A stretch of 64,000 nucleotides of DNA from a virus (lineage: Duplodnaviria; Caudoviricetes), in the IMG/VR virus record IMGVR_UViG_3300047551_002158. One strand, given 5' to 3'. The notes beneath the pieces are model-generated. The model saw only the letters and a list, made by a program, of their open reading frames with translations. It had not been told where the DNA came from and searched no databases. A program made the translations under genes and the position numbers. This document shows, in pieces, positions 38,028-46,607 of this stretch; the stretch's first letter is position 1; each line of letters starts with the position of its first letter.

Positions 38028-39023
38028 ATGGATTTTGTTGATGTTAAATACATCAATTTGATTTCTGGAAGATTTCATAAGTTCAAAAAAATAAAACATA
38101 ATCTTTATAATTTTCGTTGCCCAATCTGTGGAGATTCGCAAAAGAATAAAAATAAGGCAAGGGGATATCTCTATCAAGTAAAAAACAATACAAACTTTAA
38201 GTGTCATAATTGTGGTATCAATATATCTTTTAATAACTTTTTAAAACAAATTGATATTACGATTCATAAGCAATATACCTTTGAAAAATTTAAAGAAGGT
38301 CATAGTGGTAAAAACTTTACTGCAGAAGAACCTCAGTTTAATTTTCAGAAACCAGACTTTTTCACAAAACGTGAAAATTCGGAAAATGTGAAAAAGTTGG
38401 GTTTACCGAAAGCGTTAACAAATCCTAACGCAAAAAAGTATCTGGAAAGTAGAAAATTAAATCCAGATAACTATTATTACACCGAAAAATTTAAAGAGTG
38501 GACTAATTCTCTTCGACCAACATTCGACAATACAAATCAAGATGAACCAAGGATTATTATTCCTTTGTTTTATCAAAATAAGTTAGTCGGATTTCAGGGA
38601 AGAGCACTTGGTCCCAGTAAGGTAAAGTACATTACTATAATGCTTGATGATGACGCACCAAAAATTTATGGTCTTGATGAAGTCAAAAAAAGTGAAACTG
38701 TCTACATCACAGAAGGTCCCTTTGACTCAACATTCATTCGCAACGCGATTGCTCTTTGTGGAGCTGATGGCGATCTTGATAAGTGGAATATTGGCAGGCG
38801 TGTTTGGATTTATGATAACGAACCACGTAATGCAGAAATCACCAACAGGATCGCAAAGCGTATTGATGAAGGAGAACAAGTTGTAATTTGGCCTTCTACA
38901 ATATCCGAAAAGGATATTAATGATATGGTTTTATCTGGACTGAATGTTCAAGATGTGATAGAATCAAATACTTACTCTGGTTTAGAAGCAAAACTTAAAT
39001 TTACTACCTGGAAGAAAATATGA
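38028..39023 (+). CDS. gp61: DNA primase (T4 gp61)
   Basis: CPICGDS and CHNCG zinc finger; TEGPFDS; YDNE TOPRIM; KDIND. Confidence 0.97.
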   Translation: MDFVDVKYINLISGRFHKFKKIKHNLYNFRCPICGDSQKNKNKARGYLYQVKNNTNFKCHNCGINISFNNFLKQIDITIHKQYTFEKFKEGHSGKNFTAEEPQFNFQKPDFFTKRENSENVKKLGLPKALTNPNAKKYLESRKLNPDNYYYTEKFKEWTNSLRPTFDNTNQDEPRIIIPLFYQNKLVGFQGRALGPSKVKYITIMLDDDAPKIYGLDEVKKSETVYITEGPFDSTFIRNAIALCGADGDLDKWNIGRRVWIYDNEPRNAEITNRIAKRIDEGEQVVIWPSTISEKDINDMVLSGLNVQDVIESNTYSGLEAKLKFTTWKKI

Positions 39024-41317
39024 GCAACGGTACAAAAGTTAAAAAGCGTGATGGTCGAATTGAGTCTCTTGACCTGGAAAAGATGCACTTGATGGTTGAA
39101 GAGGCGTGTAAGGGTCTTGCAGGCGTCTCTGCGAGTCAAGTTGAGATGACATCTGGTATTCAGTTTTATGATGGTATCACCACTGCAGAGATTCAGGAGA
39201 TTCTGATTCGATCTGCTTCTGACCTGATCGATCTTGATCACCCTAATTATCAGTTTGTTGCTGCCCGTCTGCTTCTTTTTGCAGTTCGTAAGCAACTTTA
39301 TGGAAAGATGAAAGAACTTCCTCATCTTGAGCAGCACATTTATAACTGTGTTAATCAGGAAGTTTATGATAATGATATTTACAGCAAGTACTCAAAGGAA
39401 GAGATTGATAAGGCAAACTCTTTTATTGATCACGATAGAGATTATCTCTTTACTTACGCTGGACTTCGCCAGGTTGTTGATAAGTATTTGGTTCAGGATC
39501 GCAGTTCAGGTGGAGTATATGAAACTCCGCAGTTCATGTATATGATGATTGCTCTGACTATCTTTGCAGAGTATCCAAAAGAAACAAGAATGTCATATGT
39601 CAAGAGGTATTATGACGCAATCTCCAAACACAAAATCAACATCCCTACCCCCATTATGGCAGGCGTTAGGACACCACTTAGACAATTCGCTAGCTGTGTT
39701 CTTGTTGATGTTGATGACACCCTCGATAGCATCTTTAGTTCTGATATGGCTATTGGCAGATACGTTGCACAAAGGGCGGGAATCGGTATCAACGCAGGTC
39801 GCATCAGGGGTATCAACAGCAAAATCAGAGGTGGAGAAGTTCAACATACAGGTGTTGTCCCTTTCCTCAAAAAGTTTGAAGCAACTGTCCGATGCTGCAC
39901 TCAGAATGGCATCCGTGGTGGATCAGCAACTGTCCACTTCCCAATCTGGCACCAAGAAATAGAAGACATTCTTGTTCTTAAAAACAACAAGGGAACGGAA
40001 GATAATCGTGTCCGTAAACTTGATTATTCTATCCAAATTAGTAAGTTGTTTTATGAAAGATTTATTCAAGACGGTGAGATCACGCTTTTCTCTCCACATG
40101 ATGTACCTGGACTTTATGATTCTTTCGGACTCCCTGAGTTTGACGATCTCTATGTTTCGTATGAAAAAGATTCGTCCATTCCGAAAAAAACTATTAAAGC
40201 ACAAGAACTCATCCTTAACCTTCTTAAAGAACGTGCGGAAACAGGTCGTATCTACCTTATGAATATTGACCATTGCAATTCTCACTCTTCATTTAAGGAT
40301 AAAGTTAATATGAGCAATCTCTGTCAAGAGATTACTCTTCCTACTGATCCTATTCAGCATATTGATGATACTCATGGAGAAATTGCTCTGTGTATTCTTT
40401 CTGCCATTAACGTGGGCAAAGTTAAATCTGATGAAGAACTTGAGGATCTTTGTGATCTTTCTGTTCGTGGTTTGGATGAGTTGATCGACTATCAGAAATA
40501 CCCCGTAGAGGCGGCAGAAATCGCCACGAAGGCACGTCGTTCTCTTGGCATAGGATTTATTGGTCTTGCTCACTATTTGGCAAAACTTGGTTTTGATTAT
40601 GATTCTCAAGAGGCGTGGGATGCTGTTCATGGACTTTCAGAATCATTCCAATATTATCTTTTGAAAGCATCTAATCAACTTGCTAAAGAAAAGGGATATT
40701 GTGAATACTTTGGTCGTACCAAGTATGCTGATGGTATTCTTCCAATTGACACTTACAAAAAAGATGTAGACGAAATTTCATCTATCACACTTCAACATGA
40801 TTGGGAAAATCTTAGAGCATCCATCTTGGCTCACGGTCTCAGGCACTCAACATTGTCCGCACAGATGCCATCGGAGAGTAGTTCCGTTGTGTCAAATGCG
40901 ACAAATGGAATCGAACCTCCCCGTGGTTTCCTGTCCGTTAAGAAATCGAAGAAGGGCCCTCTCAAGCAGATTGTCCCTCAATATCAAACTCTTAAGAACA
41001 ACTATACGCTTCTTTGGGATATGGAGTCCAATCGTGGTTACATTAATATTGTTGCTTTGATGCAGAAGTTCTTTGATCAAGCGATTTCTGGAAACTGGTC
41101 TTATAATCCAGAAAATTATCAAGATAATGAAGTTCCTGTATCAGTAATGGCAAATGACTTTTTGACTACATACAAGTACGGGTGGAAAACTTCTTATTAC
41201 CAAAACACTTATGATATTAAGACTGATGAGGTAGTAGAAGAAAAACCCAATCTTCAAGATTTGTTAAGTGAGTTAAGTTCAGTAGAGGAGGGAGAGTGTG
41301 AATCCTGTGCAGTTTAA
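39020..41317 (+). CDS. nrdA: Class Ia ribonucleotide reductase alpha subunit
   Basis: ATP cone VKKRDG; ASCVL; SNLCQEI; AQMPSESSS; YY pair; ends ECESCAV. Confidence 0.98.
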   Translation: MSNGTKVKKRDGRIESLDLEKMHLMVEEACKGLAGVSASQVEMTSGIQFYDGITTAEIQEILIRSASDLIDLDHPNYQFVAARLLLFAVRKQLYGKMKELPHLEQHIYNCVNQEVYDNDIYSKYSKEEIDKANSFIDHDRDYLFTYAGLRQVVDKYLVQDRSSGGVYETPQFMYMMIALTIFAEYPKETRMSYVKRYYDAISKHKINIPTPIMAGVRTPLRQFASCVLVDVDDTLDSIFSSDMAIGRYVAQRAGIGINAGRIRGINSKIRGGEVQHTGVVPFLKKFEATVRCCTQNGIRGGSATVHFPIWHQEIEDILVLKNNKGTEDNRVRKLDYSIQISKLFYERFIQDGEITLFSPHDVPGLYDSFGLPEFDDLYVSYEKDSSIPKKTIKAQELILNLLKERAETGRIYLMNIDHCNSHSSFKDKVNMSNLCQEITLPTDPIQHIDDTHGEIALCILSAINVGKVKSDEELEDLCDLSVRGLDELIDYQKYPVEAAEIATKARRSLGIGFIGLAHYLAKLGFDYDSQEAWDAVHGLSESFQYYLLKASNQLAKEKGYCEYFGRTKYADGILPIDTYKKDVDEISSITLQHDWENLRASILAHGLRHSTLSAQMPSESSSVVSNATNGIEPPRGFLSVKKSKKGPLKQIVPQYQTLKNNYTLLWDMESNRGYINIVALMQKFFDQAISGNWSYNPENYQDNEVPVSVMANDFLTTYKYGWKTSYYQNTYDIKTDEVVEEKPNLQDLLSELSSVEEGECESCAV

Positions 41318-42488
41318 GATTTCTTCAACGGAAGAACCCCAAACAAATATTAAAGGAATGACCGTTTTTAACACTGAAAAAGTTGATACCAAAAAACAAC
41401 CAATGTTTTTTGGAAAACCTCTTGGAGTTCAAAGGTATGATTCATACAAATATCCAATCTTCGACAAACTGACTACTCAACAACTTGGATACTTCTGGAG
41501 ACCCGAAGAGGTGTCTCTCCAGAAGGATCGTGGCGATTATCAGACACTTCGCCCAGAGCAAAAGCATATCTATACTTCTAATCTGAAGTATCAGATTATG
41601 CTTGATTCTGTTCAGGGTCGTGGTCCTGGCATGGCATTTATTCCATACTGTTCACTTCCTGAACTGGAAGCGTGTATGGAAGTGTGGGGATTTATGGAAA
41701 TGATTCACTCACGCTCATACACATACATCATCAAAAACGTTTATTCAGATCCATCTGAGGTGTTTGATACTATCATTGGAGATGAGCGTATTCTGGAACG
41801 TGCTAAGAGTGTTACAGAGTCTTATGATGACTTTATTCAATCAGCACAACAATATGGTGTGTCCGATACTTGGATGCATAGACTTGAGGGAGTATCATAC
41901 GCAAAGGAATCACTCAACGATGTCAAACGAAAACTGTACAGAGCAGTCGCAAACGTTAATATTCTTGAAGGTATTCGCTTCTACGTTAGTTTTGCTTGTA
42001 GTTTCGCCTTTGGTGAACTTAAGCTTATGGAAGGATCCGCTAAAATCATTAGTCTCATCGCAAGAGACGAAAACCAACACTTAGCACTTACTCAGAACAT
42101 TCTGAATAAGTGGAAAGAAGGTGATGATCCTGAAATGAAGCAGATTGCAAAAGAAGAAGAAGAGTGGGTCTATAAAATGTTTGATCGTGCTGTAAACGAA
42201 GAGAAGAAATGGGCAGATTACCTGTTCAAAGATGGCAGCATGATTGGACTGAATGATAAACTTCTTCAGCAATATGTTGAATGGATTGCTAACCGTAGAC
42301 TGAAAGCAATAGGACTAAAACCACAGTATGATATTTCAGCAAACAATAATCCACTTCCTTGGACACAACACTGGATTTCTTCCAAAGGTCTTCAGGTTGC
42401 TCCGCAGCAAACTCAAGTGCAGTCTTATGTGGTTGGTGGAATAAAACAAGATGTCAAAAAAGACACATTTAGTGGTTTTAAACTTTAA
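41298..42488 (+). CDS. nrdB: Class Ia ribonucleotide reductase beta subunit with an atypical Gln-rich C-terminal tail
   Basis: FWRPEE; EMIHSRSY; ILEGIRFY; RDENQH; tail QVAPQQTQVQSY. Confidence 0.97.
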   Translation: MNPVQFKISSTEEPQTNIKGMTVFNTEKVDTKKQPMFFGKPLGVQRYDSYKYPIFDKLTTQQLGYFWRPEEVSLQKDRGDYQTLRPEQKHIYTSNLKYQIMLDSVQGRGPGMAFIPYCSLPELEACMEVWGFMEMIHSRSYTYIIKNVYSDPSEVFDTIIGDERILERAKSVTESYDDFIQSAQQYGVSDTWMHRLEGVSYAKESLNDVKRKLYRAVANVNILEGIRFYVSFACSFAFGELKLMEGSAKIISLIARDENQHLALTQNILNKWKEGDDPEMKQIAKEEEEWVYKMFDRAVNEEKKWADYLFKDGSMIGLNDKLLQQYVEWIANRRLKAIGLKPQYDISANNNPLPWTQHWISSKGLQVAPQQTQVQSYVVGGIKQDVKKDTFSGFKL

Positions 42489-42548
42489 TTGACTTTAAGA
42501 CTGAAATAGTGTATTATATAAATAATAATAGGTAAGTTCAGTCTTAAA

Positions 42549-43163
42549 ATGAATAATTATATTCTTTACTATTACTTAAGGGAGGACTTTAGTTCTCCCT
42601 TTTATGTTGGTTATGGAAGACCAAGAAGAATTAATTCCAGACACTCCAGGAGAAATGGTGCTGAAATATTACCACCAAGAGAAAGAAGATGGATTGTAAA
42701 ATCTGGATTAACTAAAGAAGAAGCAATAGAACTTGAGATAAAACATATAGCACTCTGGAAAAGAGAATGTGATGGTGGGGTTTTGTTAAATCAAAATCTT
42801 GGTGGTGAAGGAAAACCTGGAGGACAGAGAACTAAAGGATTTAGTGGAAGGAAACATAGTGAAGAAGCAAAGAAAAGAATAAGTGAAAAAGCTGCTGGCA
42901 AGAATAATCCAAGATATGGTGTTAAATTATCACAAGAGACAAGAAATAAGATAAGTCAAAACAGAACACCAAAGTTTGGTAAAGATAATCCAAACTCTAA
43001 AACTTGGAAGATTGTTTCTCCAGAAAATAAAGAGTACATTATTACTGGAGCATTAAAAGAGTTTTGTAAGTCTCAAAATATTTCATATGCAACGATGCAC
43101 GCAGCAATTCTTTACGATAGAAAAGGGCCAAGAAGAAATGGATGGAGTATTGAGAAAGTTTAG
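42549..43163 (+). CDS. Free-standing GIY-YIG-like homing endonuclease after nrdB
   Basis: YILYYYL...FYVGYG; LLNQNLGGEG; HSEEAKKRIS NUMOD3; TATAAATA 42517-42524. Confidence 0.85.
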   Translation: MNNYILYYYLREDFSSPFYVGYGRPRRINSRHSRRNGAEILPPRERRWIVKSGLTKEEAIELEIKHIALWKRECDGGVLLNQNLGGEGKPGGQRTKGFSGRKHSEEAKKRISEKAAGKNNPRYGVKLSQETRNKISQNRTPKFGKDNPNSKTWKIVSPENKEYIITGALKEFCKSQNISYATMHAAILYDRKGPRRNGWSIEKV

Positions 43164-43551
43164 AATATCACTACCAGAAGATGAGTGTGTGATAAAACTT
43201 CAGGAGTATTGTAAGTTCTCTCATACTTTGTTAAAAGTTCCTGTAGTTTCTAAACCTTTATGTGCCGACGCAAACTGCCACAATAATGTTAATCATTATG
43301 TGAATACTTATGGTGGAGAAAAGATAAGTGGATATTATCTAATCACCGATGTTGATGATGAAACTTATGGATGTGCGATATATCATAGTATTTGGAAAAA
43401 TACTTACGGAGATTTGATAGATATAACTCCATTTGATGATGGTAGAGAATATAATATGTTCTCTGTGCTAGATGCTATAGATTATTACTCTGGAGTTGCT
43501 TATGATGGAAAAGTTTATAGAATATTAGAACCAGGACTTAATGTTGTTTAA
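43138..43551 (+). CDS. Cys-His-Asp triad protein (papain/transglutaminase-like), candidate Gln deamidase
   Basis: NCHNNV (C47), HSIW (H83), DITP (D95); overlaps the endonuclease 3' end by 26 nt. Confidence 0.55.
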   Translation: MDGVLRKFRISLPEDECVIKLQEYCKFSHTLLKVPVVSKPLCADANCHNNVNHYVNTYGGEKISGYYLITDVDDETYGCAIYHSIWKNTYGDLIDITPFDDGREYNMFSVLDAIDYYSGVAYDGKVYRILEPGLNVV

Positions 43552-43580
43552 ATTATAAATAACTAAAAAGTATTTGTAAA

Positions 43581-44123
43581 ATGAACGCACAAGATTTTCG
43601 TAGTCTTCAAGAAGCATATTTGGAAGTTTATAATGACTTGGATGAAGGTGCTTCGGAAGACGTTGCTGCTAGATCCGAAAAACTTGCAAAACAAAGAAAG
43701 GGGCAAACACCTCAAAGAAAAGCAATGTATCAGGGACTTGCACTTAAAGCAAGAATTCGTGCTTCTGGAGGAAATCCTGGAGATAAATCACAGGGACATC
43801 CTTTAAGGAGAGCATCTAATAGACCTATTCACCCCCACGATAGTAAGTATGGTAGATCTGGTTTAACTCAATCTAAAAGAGATGAAAGAAGAGATATAGA
43901 TGCCGCAACTCATGGTGAGTATAGTGATGGTCCTGGAACTGTAACAAAAAATCCAAAAAAACTTCGTAAGCAAAAAGCACTTGGAGAACTTGGAGAACAA
44001 GCAGACCTCTACGACATCATTCTCTCACACCTTCTTGATGAAGGATATGCCGAAACACCAGAAGCAGCAGAAGTCATTATGGTTAATATGAGTGAGGAGT
44101 GGAGAAACTCCATTCTTGGTTAA
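43581..44123 (+). CDS. Constant-ends/variable-core late protein, copy B
   Basis: MNAQDFRSLQEAY...YDIILSHLLDEGYAETPEAAEVIMVNMSEEW; TATAAATA 43554-43561. Confidence 0.8.
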   Translation: MNAQDFRSLQEAYLEVYNDLDEGASEDVAARSEKLAKQRKGQTPQRKAMYQGLALKARIRASGGNPGDKSQGHPLRRASNRPIHPHDSKYGRSGLTQSKRDERRDIDAATHGEYSDGPGTVTKNPKKLRKQKALGELGEQADLYDIILSHLLDEGYAETPEAAEVIMVNMSEEWRNSILG

Positions 44124-44330: not shown

Positions 44331-44492
44331 ATGTCTAAAAATCAGTTAACTAAAGATGAATTTAAAGTTCGTGTTTTAAAATTAAAAAATAATCTTTATA
44401 ACGAACACGTCAGACACGATATGGATATGAAAGGACTTGCCCATAAATATCTGAATGAAGTCCTTGATATTATTGATGAGTATAGATATTGA
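44331..44492 (+). CDS. 53-aa hypothetical protein
   Basis: Manual translation MSKNQLTKDEFKVRVLKLK...LAHKYLNEVLDIIDEYRY. Confidence 0.55.
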   Translation: MSKNQLTKDEFKVRVLKLKNNLYNEHVRHDMDMKGLAHKYLNEVLDIIDEYRY

Positions 44493-44919
44493 CTACGAAA
44501 ACCCTTGGATTTATAATGGAAGTCCCTTTATAAGTTCTGATATAGATGACCACTATGGATTTGTTTATTTGATAGAAAACAAACTAAATGGTCGAAAATA
44601 TATTGGAAGAAAATACTTTTGGCAGTTTAGAACACCTAAAGGTAAAAAAAGAAAGGTAAAATCAGAATCTAATTGGAAGGATTACTATGGGTCTTGTCCG
44701 GAACTTAAAGAAGACATTGATAAATTGGGCAGAGAGAATTTTAGTCGAACTATCCTATCATTACATAAAACAAAGGGCAAAACAAACTTTGAGGAGACCA
44801 GACGACTCTTTCTCAATGATGTCCTCACCGAATCTCTTGACAACGGAGGACCAGCCTGGTACAATAGTAACATCCTCAACAGGTACTTCCGAAAAGATTA
44901 TTATGGAAACAACGACTGA
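44476..44919 (+). CDS. Conserved GIY-YIG-fold protein lacking DNA-binding repeats
   Basis: GFVYLIEN...KYIGRK; YYGS; WYNSNI. Confidence 0.75.
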   Translation: MSIDIDYENPWIYNGSPFISSDIDDHYGFVYLIENKLNGRKYIGRKYFWQFRTPKGKKRKVKSESNWKDYYGSCPELKEDIDKLGRENFSRTILSLHKTKGKTNFEETRRLFLNDVLTESLDNGGPAWYNSNILNRYFRKDYYGNND

Positions 44920-45956: not shown

Positions 45957-46607
45957 ATGAAACACTTTTATGTGTATTATTCCTATGAGGAATATGGAAG
46001 GGGATATATTGGAAAAAGAGAATGTAAATGTCTTCCAGAAGAAGATGTAAGTTATTTTGGAAGTTTCAAAGATAAAACTTTCAATCCAACTCAAAAAATA
46101 ATATTAGAAACTTTTGATAGTGTGGAGAAAGCCCTGGCAGCAGAATGTGCTCTCCACGACTTTTATGAGGTAGATAAAAATCCACACTTTGCTAATAGAG
46201 CAAAACAAACTTCTACTGGATTTTATTGTAATAAAGGTGCTGGTGAAGAAGCAAATAAGAAAAGAAGTGAGTTGATGAAAACAGAATACAATCCTATGAG
46301 TAATCTAAAACTCAAAGAGAAAGCAAGAAAAAACTTGATTAGAACTTTGAGTAATCCAGAAATGAGAAAACTAAAAAGTAGAGTTGGAAAGAAAGCACAC
46401 AATCGTCCAGAAGTAGTTGAGAACCATAGACAGGCAGCACTCAAATCTCATCAAAATCCAGAAACAAAAAGAAAACATATTGAGGCAAAACTTGGTGAGA
46501 AAAATCCTTGTTATGGTAAAAAGTGGATTACAAATGGAAATGAAAACAAATACATAAATTCTATTGATGAAGTTCCAAGTGGTTTTTGGTATGGTAGAGT
46601 TGTTTGA
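45957..46607 (+). CDS. Free-standing GIY-YIG-like homing endonuclease
   Basis: FYVYYSY...GYIGKR; YFGS; FANRA; terminal KKWITNG NUMOD-like tail; TATAAATA 45925-45932. Confidence 0.82.
   Translation: MKHFYVYYSYEEYGRGYIGKRECKCLPEEDVSYFGSFKDKTFNPTQKIILETFDSVEKALAAECALHDFYEVDKNPHFANRAKQTSTGFYCNKGAGEEANKKRSELMKTEYNPMSNLKLKEKARKNLIRTLSNPEMRKLKSRVGKKAHNRPEVVENHRQAALKSHQNPETKRKHIEAKLGEKNPCYGKKWITNGNENKYINSIDEVPSGFWYGRVV

Follow-up and report, generated by a model that had tools for sequence, protein, structure and literature searches.

Chemoreceptor genes encode glutamine (Gln) residues that a dedicated deamidase, CheD or CheB, converts to glutamate (Glu), CheD by means of a catalytic cysteine. In the Pup/Dop system of actinobacteria the C-terminal Gln of some species needs deamidation to Glu, and other species encode Glu directly. 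The ribonucleotide reductase (nrd) loci of T4-family phages harbor free-standing homing endonucleases, among them mobE, I-TevIII and Seg proteins, as described in PMC2790892. Here we analyze a 64,000-nucleotide (nt) stretch of viral DNA (Duplodnaviria; Caudoviricetes; IMG/VR virus record IMGVR_UViG_3300047551_002158), called the window below, in which the nrdB gene carries Gln codons at C-terminal positions where Glu is expected and is followed by an endonuclease gene and by an open reading frame (ORF) of 137 amino acids (aa), ORF137. The initial annotation proposed that ORF137 restores Glu in the NrdB protein and stated that no description of such a system was known; our full-text literature searches likewise returned no paper in which a Gln-tailed NrdB, a deamidase linked to a reductase or the ORF137 family is treated, and nothing relevant on a phage reductase deamidase or on E350Q. 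Because the Gln tail and the family co-occur, the putative catalytic triad of the family is invariant and the Gln-tail NrdBs appear functional, a functional coupling of ORF137 and the tail is strongly supported, and we regard some coupling of this kind as highly probable. The features on which the argument is built are the following.

39020..41317, plus strand: nrdA, class Ia ribonucleotide reductase alpha subunit (765 aa); phmmer against solved class Ia alpha chains, E down to 6.6e-278.
41358..42488, plus strand: nrdB, class Ia beta subunit (376 aa from ATG 41358); PF00268 4.2e-58, E. coli R2 chains 3e-125, full length.
42393..42428, plus strand: nrdB tail motif QVAPQQTQVQSY; direct reading and alignment to E. 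coli.
42549..43163, plus strand: free-standing homing endonuclease gene (204 aa) with a GIY-YIG-like N-terminal motif and a NUMOD3 DNA-binding region; NUMOD3 6.4e-13, PHROG 314 "homing endonuclease" 1.2e-17.
43138..43551, plus strand: ORF137, member of a Cys47/His83/Asp95 family, proposed NrdB-tail glutamine amidohydrolase (137 aa; 154 aa from 43087).
42489..43580, plus strand: insertion relative to Glu-tail genomes, comprising the endonuclease gene and ORF137, between nrdB and the next shared gene.

The codons at 42393-42428 (CAG GTT GCT CCG CAG CAA ACT CAA GTG CAG TCT TAT) encode QVAPQQTQVQSY, with the tail pattern QVAPQ-Q-T-Q-V-Q-SY and the Gln codons CAA 42408, CAA 42414 and CAG 42420. In the phmmer alignment the E. 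coli R2 chains show QVAPQEVEVSSY opposite the tail, which places the first of these Gln residues at E350 and the tyrosine at Y356; the three Gln align with E. coli E350, E352 and S354, position 354 being Glu in cyanophages. Direct reading and the E. coli alignment thus bear out the tail letters, the Gln at E350 and the three codons as first claimed. Glu is found at 350 and 352 in E. coli and most phage relatives, and the Glu expected at position 350 of a class Ia NrdB is Gln (CAA 42408) in the encoded window protein. The nearest Glu-type relatives read QVAPQETEVESY, in a tail otherwise the same as that of the window, and some Glu-tail proteins depart from the window tail solely at its three Gln positions. 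Among the 120 closest NrdB proteins (95-98% identity) there are 90 with Glu tails (QETEVESY, QETEIESY or QETEQETY), 24 with Gln at 350 and 6 with QETQVQSY. The tail changes are first-position G-to-C transversions, located within a stretch whose codon positions 1 and 2 are otherwise constrained by the function of the protein, the very kind of site that homing endonucleases exploit. Both CAA and CAG serve as Gln codons, and the neighboring wobble sites vary freely. No His, Lys or other single-step replacement was found at the tail Glu sites of Gln-tail NrdBs down to 45% identity. The change is chemically specific: only Glu is swapped, and it is swapped for its isosteric amide.

An assembly or sequencing artefact as the source of the Gln codons has a negligible probability. 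We found nothing in favor of this explanation, and it is refuted by the recurrence of the allele in more than 200 contigs, in runs of at least 14 studies, and by contigs from two other studies that span 42369-42618 and 42374-42587 with zero differences to the window. Since the latter agree exactly with the window from the tail into the beginning of the endonuclease gene, an assembly error is excluded, and the initial statement that the codons are unlikely to be sequencing noise is confirmed by hundreds of independent metagenome contigs. The DNA pattern of the Gln tail has no match across 185,579 prokaryote species genomes.

The region originates from a T4-like cyanomyovirus, whose closest cultured relatives are Synechococcus phages such as S-SCSM1 (~79% nt identity over nrdB). 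The stretch 42300-43600 is present mainly in runs of freshwater and freshwater-sediment metagenomes and in one estuary run, yet marine Synechococcus are the hosts of the nearest cultured phages. The pair of Gln tail and ORF137 family may have escaped attention so far because no cultured phage carries it. Summed contig depth, which is only a rough guide, drops several-fold inside ~42388-43532 compared with both flanks in three metagenome runs, and in one metagenome run a contig diverges at 42412 into GGAGGTAGAA, a Glu-type sequence; for these two reasons cassette-bearing and cassette-free phages seem to coexist in one sample.

Co-occurrence of the Gln tail with the ORF137 family was examined from three starting points in IMG/VR (the NrdB sequence, the ORF137 sequence and a degenerate DNA pattern for the Gln tail) and in metagenome contigs; the pattern ignores downstream content, and the family was detected with a profile built from ORF137 relatives. 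With NrdB as the query (80 loci), the 3 Gln tails are all accompanied by the endonuclease gene and the ORF, and the 77 Glu-tail loci have neither. With ORF137 as the query (80 loci), the ORF lies directly downstream of nrdB wherever the locus extends upstream, and all tails contain Gln except those of L085 (QETEVESY) and L126 (QETEQETY). The pattern scan of IMG/VR identified 117 Gln-tail loci, with a family member right after nrdB in 111/111 of those with sufficient downstream DNA; in the other six the contig ends at most 430 nt past nrdB. The same scan of metagenome contigs gave 103 distinct loci, 93 of them with the family (counting L417, which shows only the start of the family gene at the contig end); nine of the remaining ten stop too soon (<610 nt downstream of nrdB) and one is not nrdB. 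The two pattern scans are not fully independent, since the metagenome contigs share their origin with IMG/VR in part. Candidate counter-examples were rejected upon inspection: the contig of L417 stops inside the family gene and that of L467 inside the endonuclease gene, L451 (among the nine) is a chimeric contig whose end lies in the endonuclease gene, and L435 is not nrdB. In L451 a GIY-YIG gene that begins downstream of nrdB runs into the apparent end of a bacterial DUF1501-type gene, probably an assembly chimera. After removal of duplicate NrdB sequences the loci are distributed as follows.

Tail all Glu, family absent: 59 loci.
Tail Gln350, family present: 54 loci.
Tail Glu350 and Gln352, family present: 17 loci.
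Tail all Glu, family present: 2 loci.
Tail with any Gln, family absent: 0 loci.

The check put forward in the initial annotation, whether every Gln-tail nrdB is accompanied by the triad ORF, therefore had a positive outcome with zero counter-examples, in three NrdB clades and several gene arrangements; far from being common, Gln-tail nrdB without the triad ORF is represented by 0 loci in the non-redundant set. Approximately 157 family-less relatives across the three NrdB clades have Glu in all cases. A tree of NrdB built without the tail requires at least 24 changes of family presence or absence. Of the independent pairs, nine are well supported, and among them Gln352 goes with the family 8-9 times and the opposite is never seen (p ~0.004).

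Many of the pattern hits are NrdBs only about 50% identical to that of the window, whose tails read QQTQISSY or QQTQITSY. For one QQTQISSY NrdB the 79 nearest relatives all have QETE or QEVE at 349-352 (mostly QETEI..Y; five have QEVELSSY), and no family member was found near any of these 79, even at 95% identity. A third clade, reached via distant family members, consists of 360-aa NrdBs; here Glu is present at 350 and 352 in 42/42 family-less loci, and the scan found Gln in 7/7 family-bearing loci (e.g. QQTQIQSY, QESQLQSY and QETQIQTY), with a matched pair formed by L383 (QQTQIISY, with the family) and its relative L382 (QETEIISY). L360 and L363, the loci leading to this clade, possess the family and have the tails QQTEVQSY and QESELQSY. 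In the presence of the family Gln and Glu occur in all combinations at 350, 352 and 354, including the QQ.Q and QE.Q types and EE.E; in its absence 350 and 352 are always Glu. The data fit the rule that Gln is tolerated at the tail Glu sites only with an adjoining family gene, and that Gln and Glu are then interchangeable.

The endonuclease gene is missing from 77/80 of the nearest nrdB loci and represents a presence/absence polymorphism at an intergenic site. The product matches NUMOD3 and PHROG 314; the Pfam GIY-YIG models gave no match on residues 1-104 of the 204-aa window protein, where only the motif YILYYY...FYVGYG resembles GIY-YIG. Its fused relatives give an LEM-3-like GIY-YIG match above the cut-off. 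Counted as distinct family ORFs, the arrangements fall into several types. In ~54 cases the order is nrdB, endonuclease gene, family gene, as in the window, with endonucleases 33-100% identical to that of the window. In ~40 cases the family domain and a GIY-YIG/NUMOD3 endonuclease share one open frame with a conserved linker; in these fused frames (L166:2589-3716, minus strand; L161, L167, L200 and others) a Met always stands just before the YYVY start of the endonuclease, which leaves room for a fusion protein as well as for an internal start. In ~6 cases the family ORF directly follows nrdB without an intact endonuclease gene, and the tails are still Gln: L160, L207, L211, L247 and L272 have no endonuclease at all and keep the triad, and L242 has only an endonuclease fragment. 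In the third clade the family domain forms the C-terminal part of a 538-aa protein that contains DUF723 and treble-clef zinc-finger repeats (L360:3861-5477) or of a 191-aa remnant (L363:4852-5427), in each case just after nrdB. The FDFYLP...VEYDG..H stretch of the 538-aa protein may resemble Vsr-type endonuclease motifs. Since the family occurs alone, behind an endonuclease, or fused to two unrelated partner types, the family, and not any one endonuclease, is the constant partner of the Gln tail; the idea of the endonuclease as its tight partner had to be abandoned, as the pair also occurs without an endonuclease or with GIY-YIG or DUF723 zinc-finger partners. From its fusion to endonuclease-like partners of two unrelated types it is evident that carrying the family benefits mobile elements at the nrdB locus.

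These arrangements bear on the main rival explanation, namely that the Gln codons are cleavage-resistant polymorphisms that hitch-hike by co-conversion with the endonucleases, that the unmodified beta subunit works, and that the family serves the endonucleases in some other role, for instance as an accessory or anti-host domain. Such a scenario agrees with the distance of the tail from the insertion point (70-140 nt), with the fusions to two endonuclease-like partner types, with the movement of the cassette among nrdB backgrounds at least 24 times, and with the co-conversion of flanking DNA by free-standing endonucleases near T4 nrdB, as reported in PMC2790892. On balance we nevertheless consider it unlikely. 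Synonymous changes would be a cheaper way to immunity, yet only Glu-to-Gln changes are seen, even at a position that the literature calls essential; NrdBs with no more than 45% identity to one another retain Gln in the form of CAA or CAG and never show His or Lys; the triad is kept in at least five distinct family-Gln-tail pairs without an endonuclease (the five loci listed above); and the family in phages was never seen away from nrdB.

The functional state of the Gln-tail reductase can be assessed from the conservation of its other residues. The window NrdB keeps W48, D84, E115, H118, Y122, E204, E238, H241 and Y356, and all nine are kept in 71/71 distinct Gln-tail NrdBs (down to 45% identity). 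The rest of nrdB and nrdA is intact, as the initial annotation had it: all metal ligands and radical-pathway residues are kept and NrdA matches solved alpha chains. Reviews and structural papers describe E350 as essential for turnover and as a key to the positioning of the tail, in cryo-electron microscopy structures of the E. coli enzyme K154 and S647 of alpha hold E350 of beta, and E350 substitutions disrupt radical transfer in E. coli. We found no compensating change in NrdA: no column separates Gln-tail from Glu-tail phages (best separation 0.70), at the best-separating columns the window often has the Glu-class residue, and the equivalents of K154 and S647 are invariant in both groups of phages. 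The E350Q exchange in particular is reported to be inactive. The E. coli data on E350 would suit a Gln-tail NrdB that is inactive or regulatory, with deoxynucleotides supplied by another route, but the catalytic and pathway residues, including Y356, are invariant in the 71 divergent Gln-tail NrdBs and nrdA stands intact alongside, which makes this possibility very improbable. To judge from their sequences, the Gln-tail NrdBs are clearly kept functional.

ORF137 itself belongs to a large family, for which a profile search detected 1,744 cluster representatives, including bacterial proteins of about 200 aa, none of them characterized. In an alignment of 44 diverse members (18-91% identity) C47, Y67, H83, D95 and P98 are invariant and H48, N50, G65, T97, D101 and R103 nearly so; the claimed Cys47-His83-Asp95 triad coincides exactly with the invariant polar residues of the family, and the order of the three is that of papain/transglutaminase-like amidohydrolases. 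In the AlphaFold2 model of ORF137 (predicted local distance difference test, pLDDT, 88.9; predicted template modeling score, pTM, 0.80) C47 opens helix 47-58, H83 is placed in strand 78-87 and D95 in strand 93-95, a predicted layout typical of papain- or transglutaminase-type thiol hydrolases. PHROGs offer only the function-less phrog_37148, and searches of the AlphaFold DB clusters and the ESM Atlas yielded nothing beyond proteins without a name, of which some have a SEC-C motif, and weak leads to YunG-like proteins. A tblastn search with three family members against 50,697 phage records revealed no nrdB-linked homolog, only a weak match in an unannotated fecal contig. The bacterial relatives are ~180-230 aa long, some with a C-terminal SEC-C motif (L358:795-1394; L359:4001-4552); the contexts of two bacterial homologs are uninformative, one being on a short contig and the other beside an integrase, an MT-A70 methylase and an IS66 fragment. 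We conclude that the assignment of the family as a Cys-His-Asp enzyme is well supported, and that its assignment as a transglutaminase-fold deamidase is reasonable but unproven.

A predicted complex of ORF137 with the 47-aa NrdB tail obtained a score of 0.50 against 0.00 for the best control, rated by the tool as "weak support", with agreement between runs in at least 42% of contacts and a partner pLDDT of at least 77. In the calibration of this method the mark was reached by 58/80 solved complexes and 2/110 mismatched pairs, and scores of 0.60 or lower were obtained in only 7/80 solved complexes and in both passing mismatches. This weakly supported contact, like the co-occurrence data, would also be expected if ORF137 acted on the tail in another way, by transamidation (a cross-link to an NrdA lysine or the addition of an amine) or by binding and regulation, with Gln as the working substrate. 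Transglutaminase-type Cys-His-Asp enzymes are generally known to catalyze transamidation as well as deamidation, and K154 of alpha neighbors E350. However, a covalent alpha-beta link should block catalysis, because the tail has to leave the active site at each turnover, and the mixed and all-Glu tails found alongside the family fit an equivalence of Gln and Glu, not a requirement for Gln; we regard such an alternative action as decidedly unlikely.

Gln-to-Glu deamidation would be the most economical form of coupling. It is a reaction suited to an enzyme of the Cys-His-Asp type, and the disordered tail is an accessible substrate. From the conservation and co-occurrence patterns we infer the following scheme for catalysis, substrate, endonuclease target and dependence. 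ORF137 would be a thiol amidohydrolase with the triad Cys47-His83-Asp95, and its substrate would be the disordered C-terminal tail of the phage's own NrdB, in which the gene encodes Gln where Glu is required (E350, E352 and, in cyanophages, 354). The enzyme would deamidate the tail Gln residues to Glu post-translationally (+0.984 Da each), and the restored carboxylate would let the tail dock at the NrdA residues that correspond to K154 and S647 of E. coli, permitting radical transfer. With the enzyme present Gln and Glu would be equivalent and mixed tails could occur; with the enzyme absent only Glu would be viable. In most cases a homing endonuclease, encoded separately or in fusion with the enzyme, accompanies the gene pair; resistance of the carrier allele to cleavage is probably conferred by the first-position G-to-C changes, and after homing and co-conversion the reductase of the recipient would depend on the enzyme. 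The asymmetry of 2 all-Glu tails with the family and 0 Gln tails without it points, albeit indirectly, to such a dependence of the carrier. The probability that ORF137 is a dedicated glutamine deamidase that matures the NrdB tail to Glu we consider evenly balanced. Only tentatively do we advance the complete scenario, in which a mobile element edits the gene and repairs the protein, i.e. an endonuclease directed at the invariant Glu codons of the nrdB tail gains immunity by recoding them to Gln and carries, at times within one polypeptide, the deamidase that reverses the change, making the reductase dependent after homing. The overall interpretation given in the initial annotation is thus partly supported, and the sequence patterns are consistent with restoration of Glu from Gln.

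Several points weigh against a deamidase. The tail lies only ~70-140 nt from the insertion point, and because co-conversion alone would keep the tail and the cassette together, their association is no proof of a functional link; all Gln tails could go back to a single event in an ancestor. That E350 is essential follows from measurements on the E. coli enzyme, not on these phage enzymes. Foldseek found no match of the ORF137 fold to the PDB or to Swiss-Prot models, an exhaustive VIA-align search gave Z of 3.7 at most, with TglA, PeiW, PeiP, staphopain C, LapG and NAT reaching only Z 2.6-3.4 among unrelated glyoxalase-like matches, and there is no Pfam or NCBIfam family for ORF137, nor did the family profile retrieve anything from the PDB sequences. 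The resemblance to papain and transglutaminases consists in the residue order Cys-His-Asp; neither structure nor profile comparison gave a significant match, and the three residues could be ligands of a metal instead.

The stop codon of nrdB occupies 42486-42488, and ORF137 overlaps the 3' end of the endonuclease gene by 26 nt. The longest frame of nrdB opens at GTG 41298 and overlaps the final 20 nt of nrdA; in many database relatives the annotated start is the upstream one (~396 aa), in others it is the ATG (376 aa). An RNA library contains a single 262-nt contig that covers 42942-43201, too little for claiming transcription. In Glu-tail relatives such as L002 the homolog of the 180-aa downstream protein begins ~60 nt past nrdB. 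Three homing-endonuclease-like genes are found inside ~4 kb of the window (42549-43163, 44455-44919 and 45957-46607), and the features beyond the insertion are the following.

43581-44123, plus strand: 180-aa gene, the next one shared with Glu-tail genomes.
44455-44919: SegE-type GIY-YIG gene; PF19835 1.7e-53, the best PHROG being oddly labeled "NAD synthetase".
45957-46607: 216-aa homing-endonuclease-like protein; matches PHROG 314 and, weakly, NUMOD3.

If restoration of Glu by ORF137 is true, this would be the first ribonucleotide reductase known to need side-chain deamidation for activity, and it would provide the first function for a large uncharacterized family that includes bacterial members. 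It would also reveal a new strategy of selfish DNA, in which escape from the nuclease is achieved by a change of essential codons that is undone in the protein. The locus also offers natural E350Q, E352Q and related variants of a much-studied radical-transfer tail, on which the role of E350 could be probed with the enzyme proposed to convert them. Should the deamidase idea fail, the near-perfect and deeply conserved link of a tail polymorphism at an essential residue to a neighboring gene would stand and would call for an explanation.

Among known systems, the endonucleases of the T4 nrd loci share with the present element the locus, the presence/absence polymorphism, NUMOD3 (and GIY-YIG in relatives) and the flanking DNA that travels along, but their target-site differences are tolerated, and none is reported to alter an essential residue or to carry the gene of an enzyme that reverses the alteration. 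Toxin-antitoxin and restriction-modification systems are similar in that loss of the element would harm the carrier and thereby stabilize the element; the harm proposed here, with a dependence that we infer, would come from a disabled essential enzyme and not from a toxin. CNF1, Cif, OspI, protein-glutaminase and Ntaq1 have a Cys-His-Asp triad with the Cys at a helix N-terminus, as predicted for ORF137, and hydrolyze protein Gln side chains; however, such papain/transglutaminase-fold deamidases act mostly on foreign or N-terminal targets and not on the product of a neighboring gene, and ORF137 has no significant match to them. The Gln/Glu polymorphism of Pup between species parallels that of the nrdB tail, although Dop is ATP-dependent and related to glutamine synthetase, acts on one residue and has no link to an endonuclease or to ribonucleotide reductase. 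CheD and CheB show no detectable sequence or fold relation to ORF137, and their substrate is a signaling receptor, with no mobile element involved, whereas here it would be a radical enzyme; what they have in common with the proposed system is a gene that encodes Gln at sites due to become Glu and a deamidase dedicated to this conversion.

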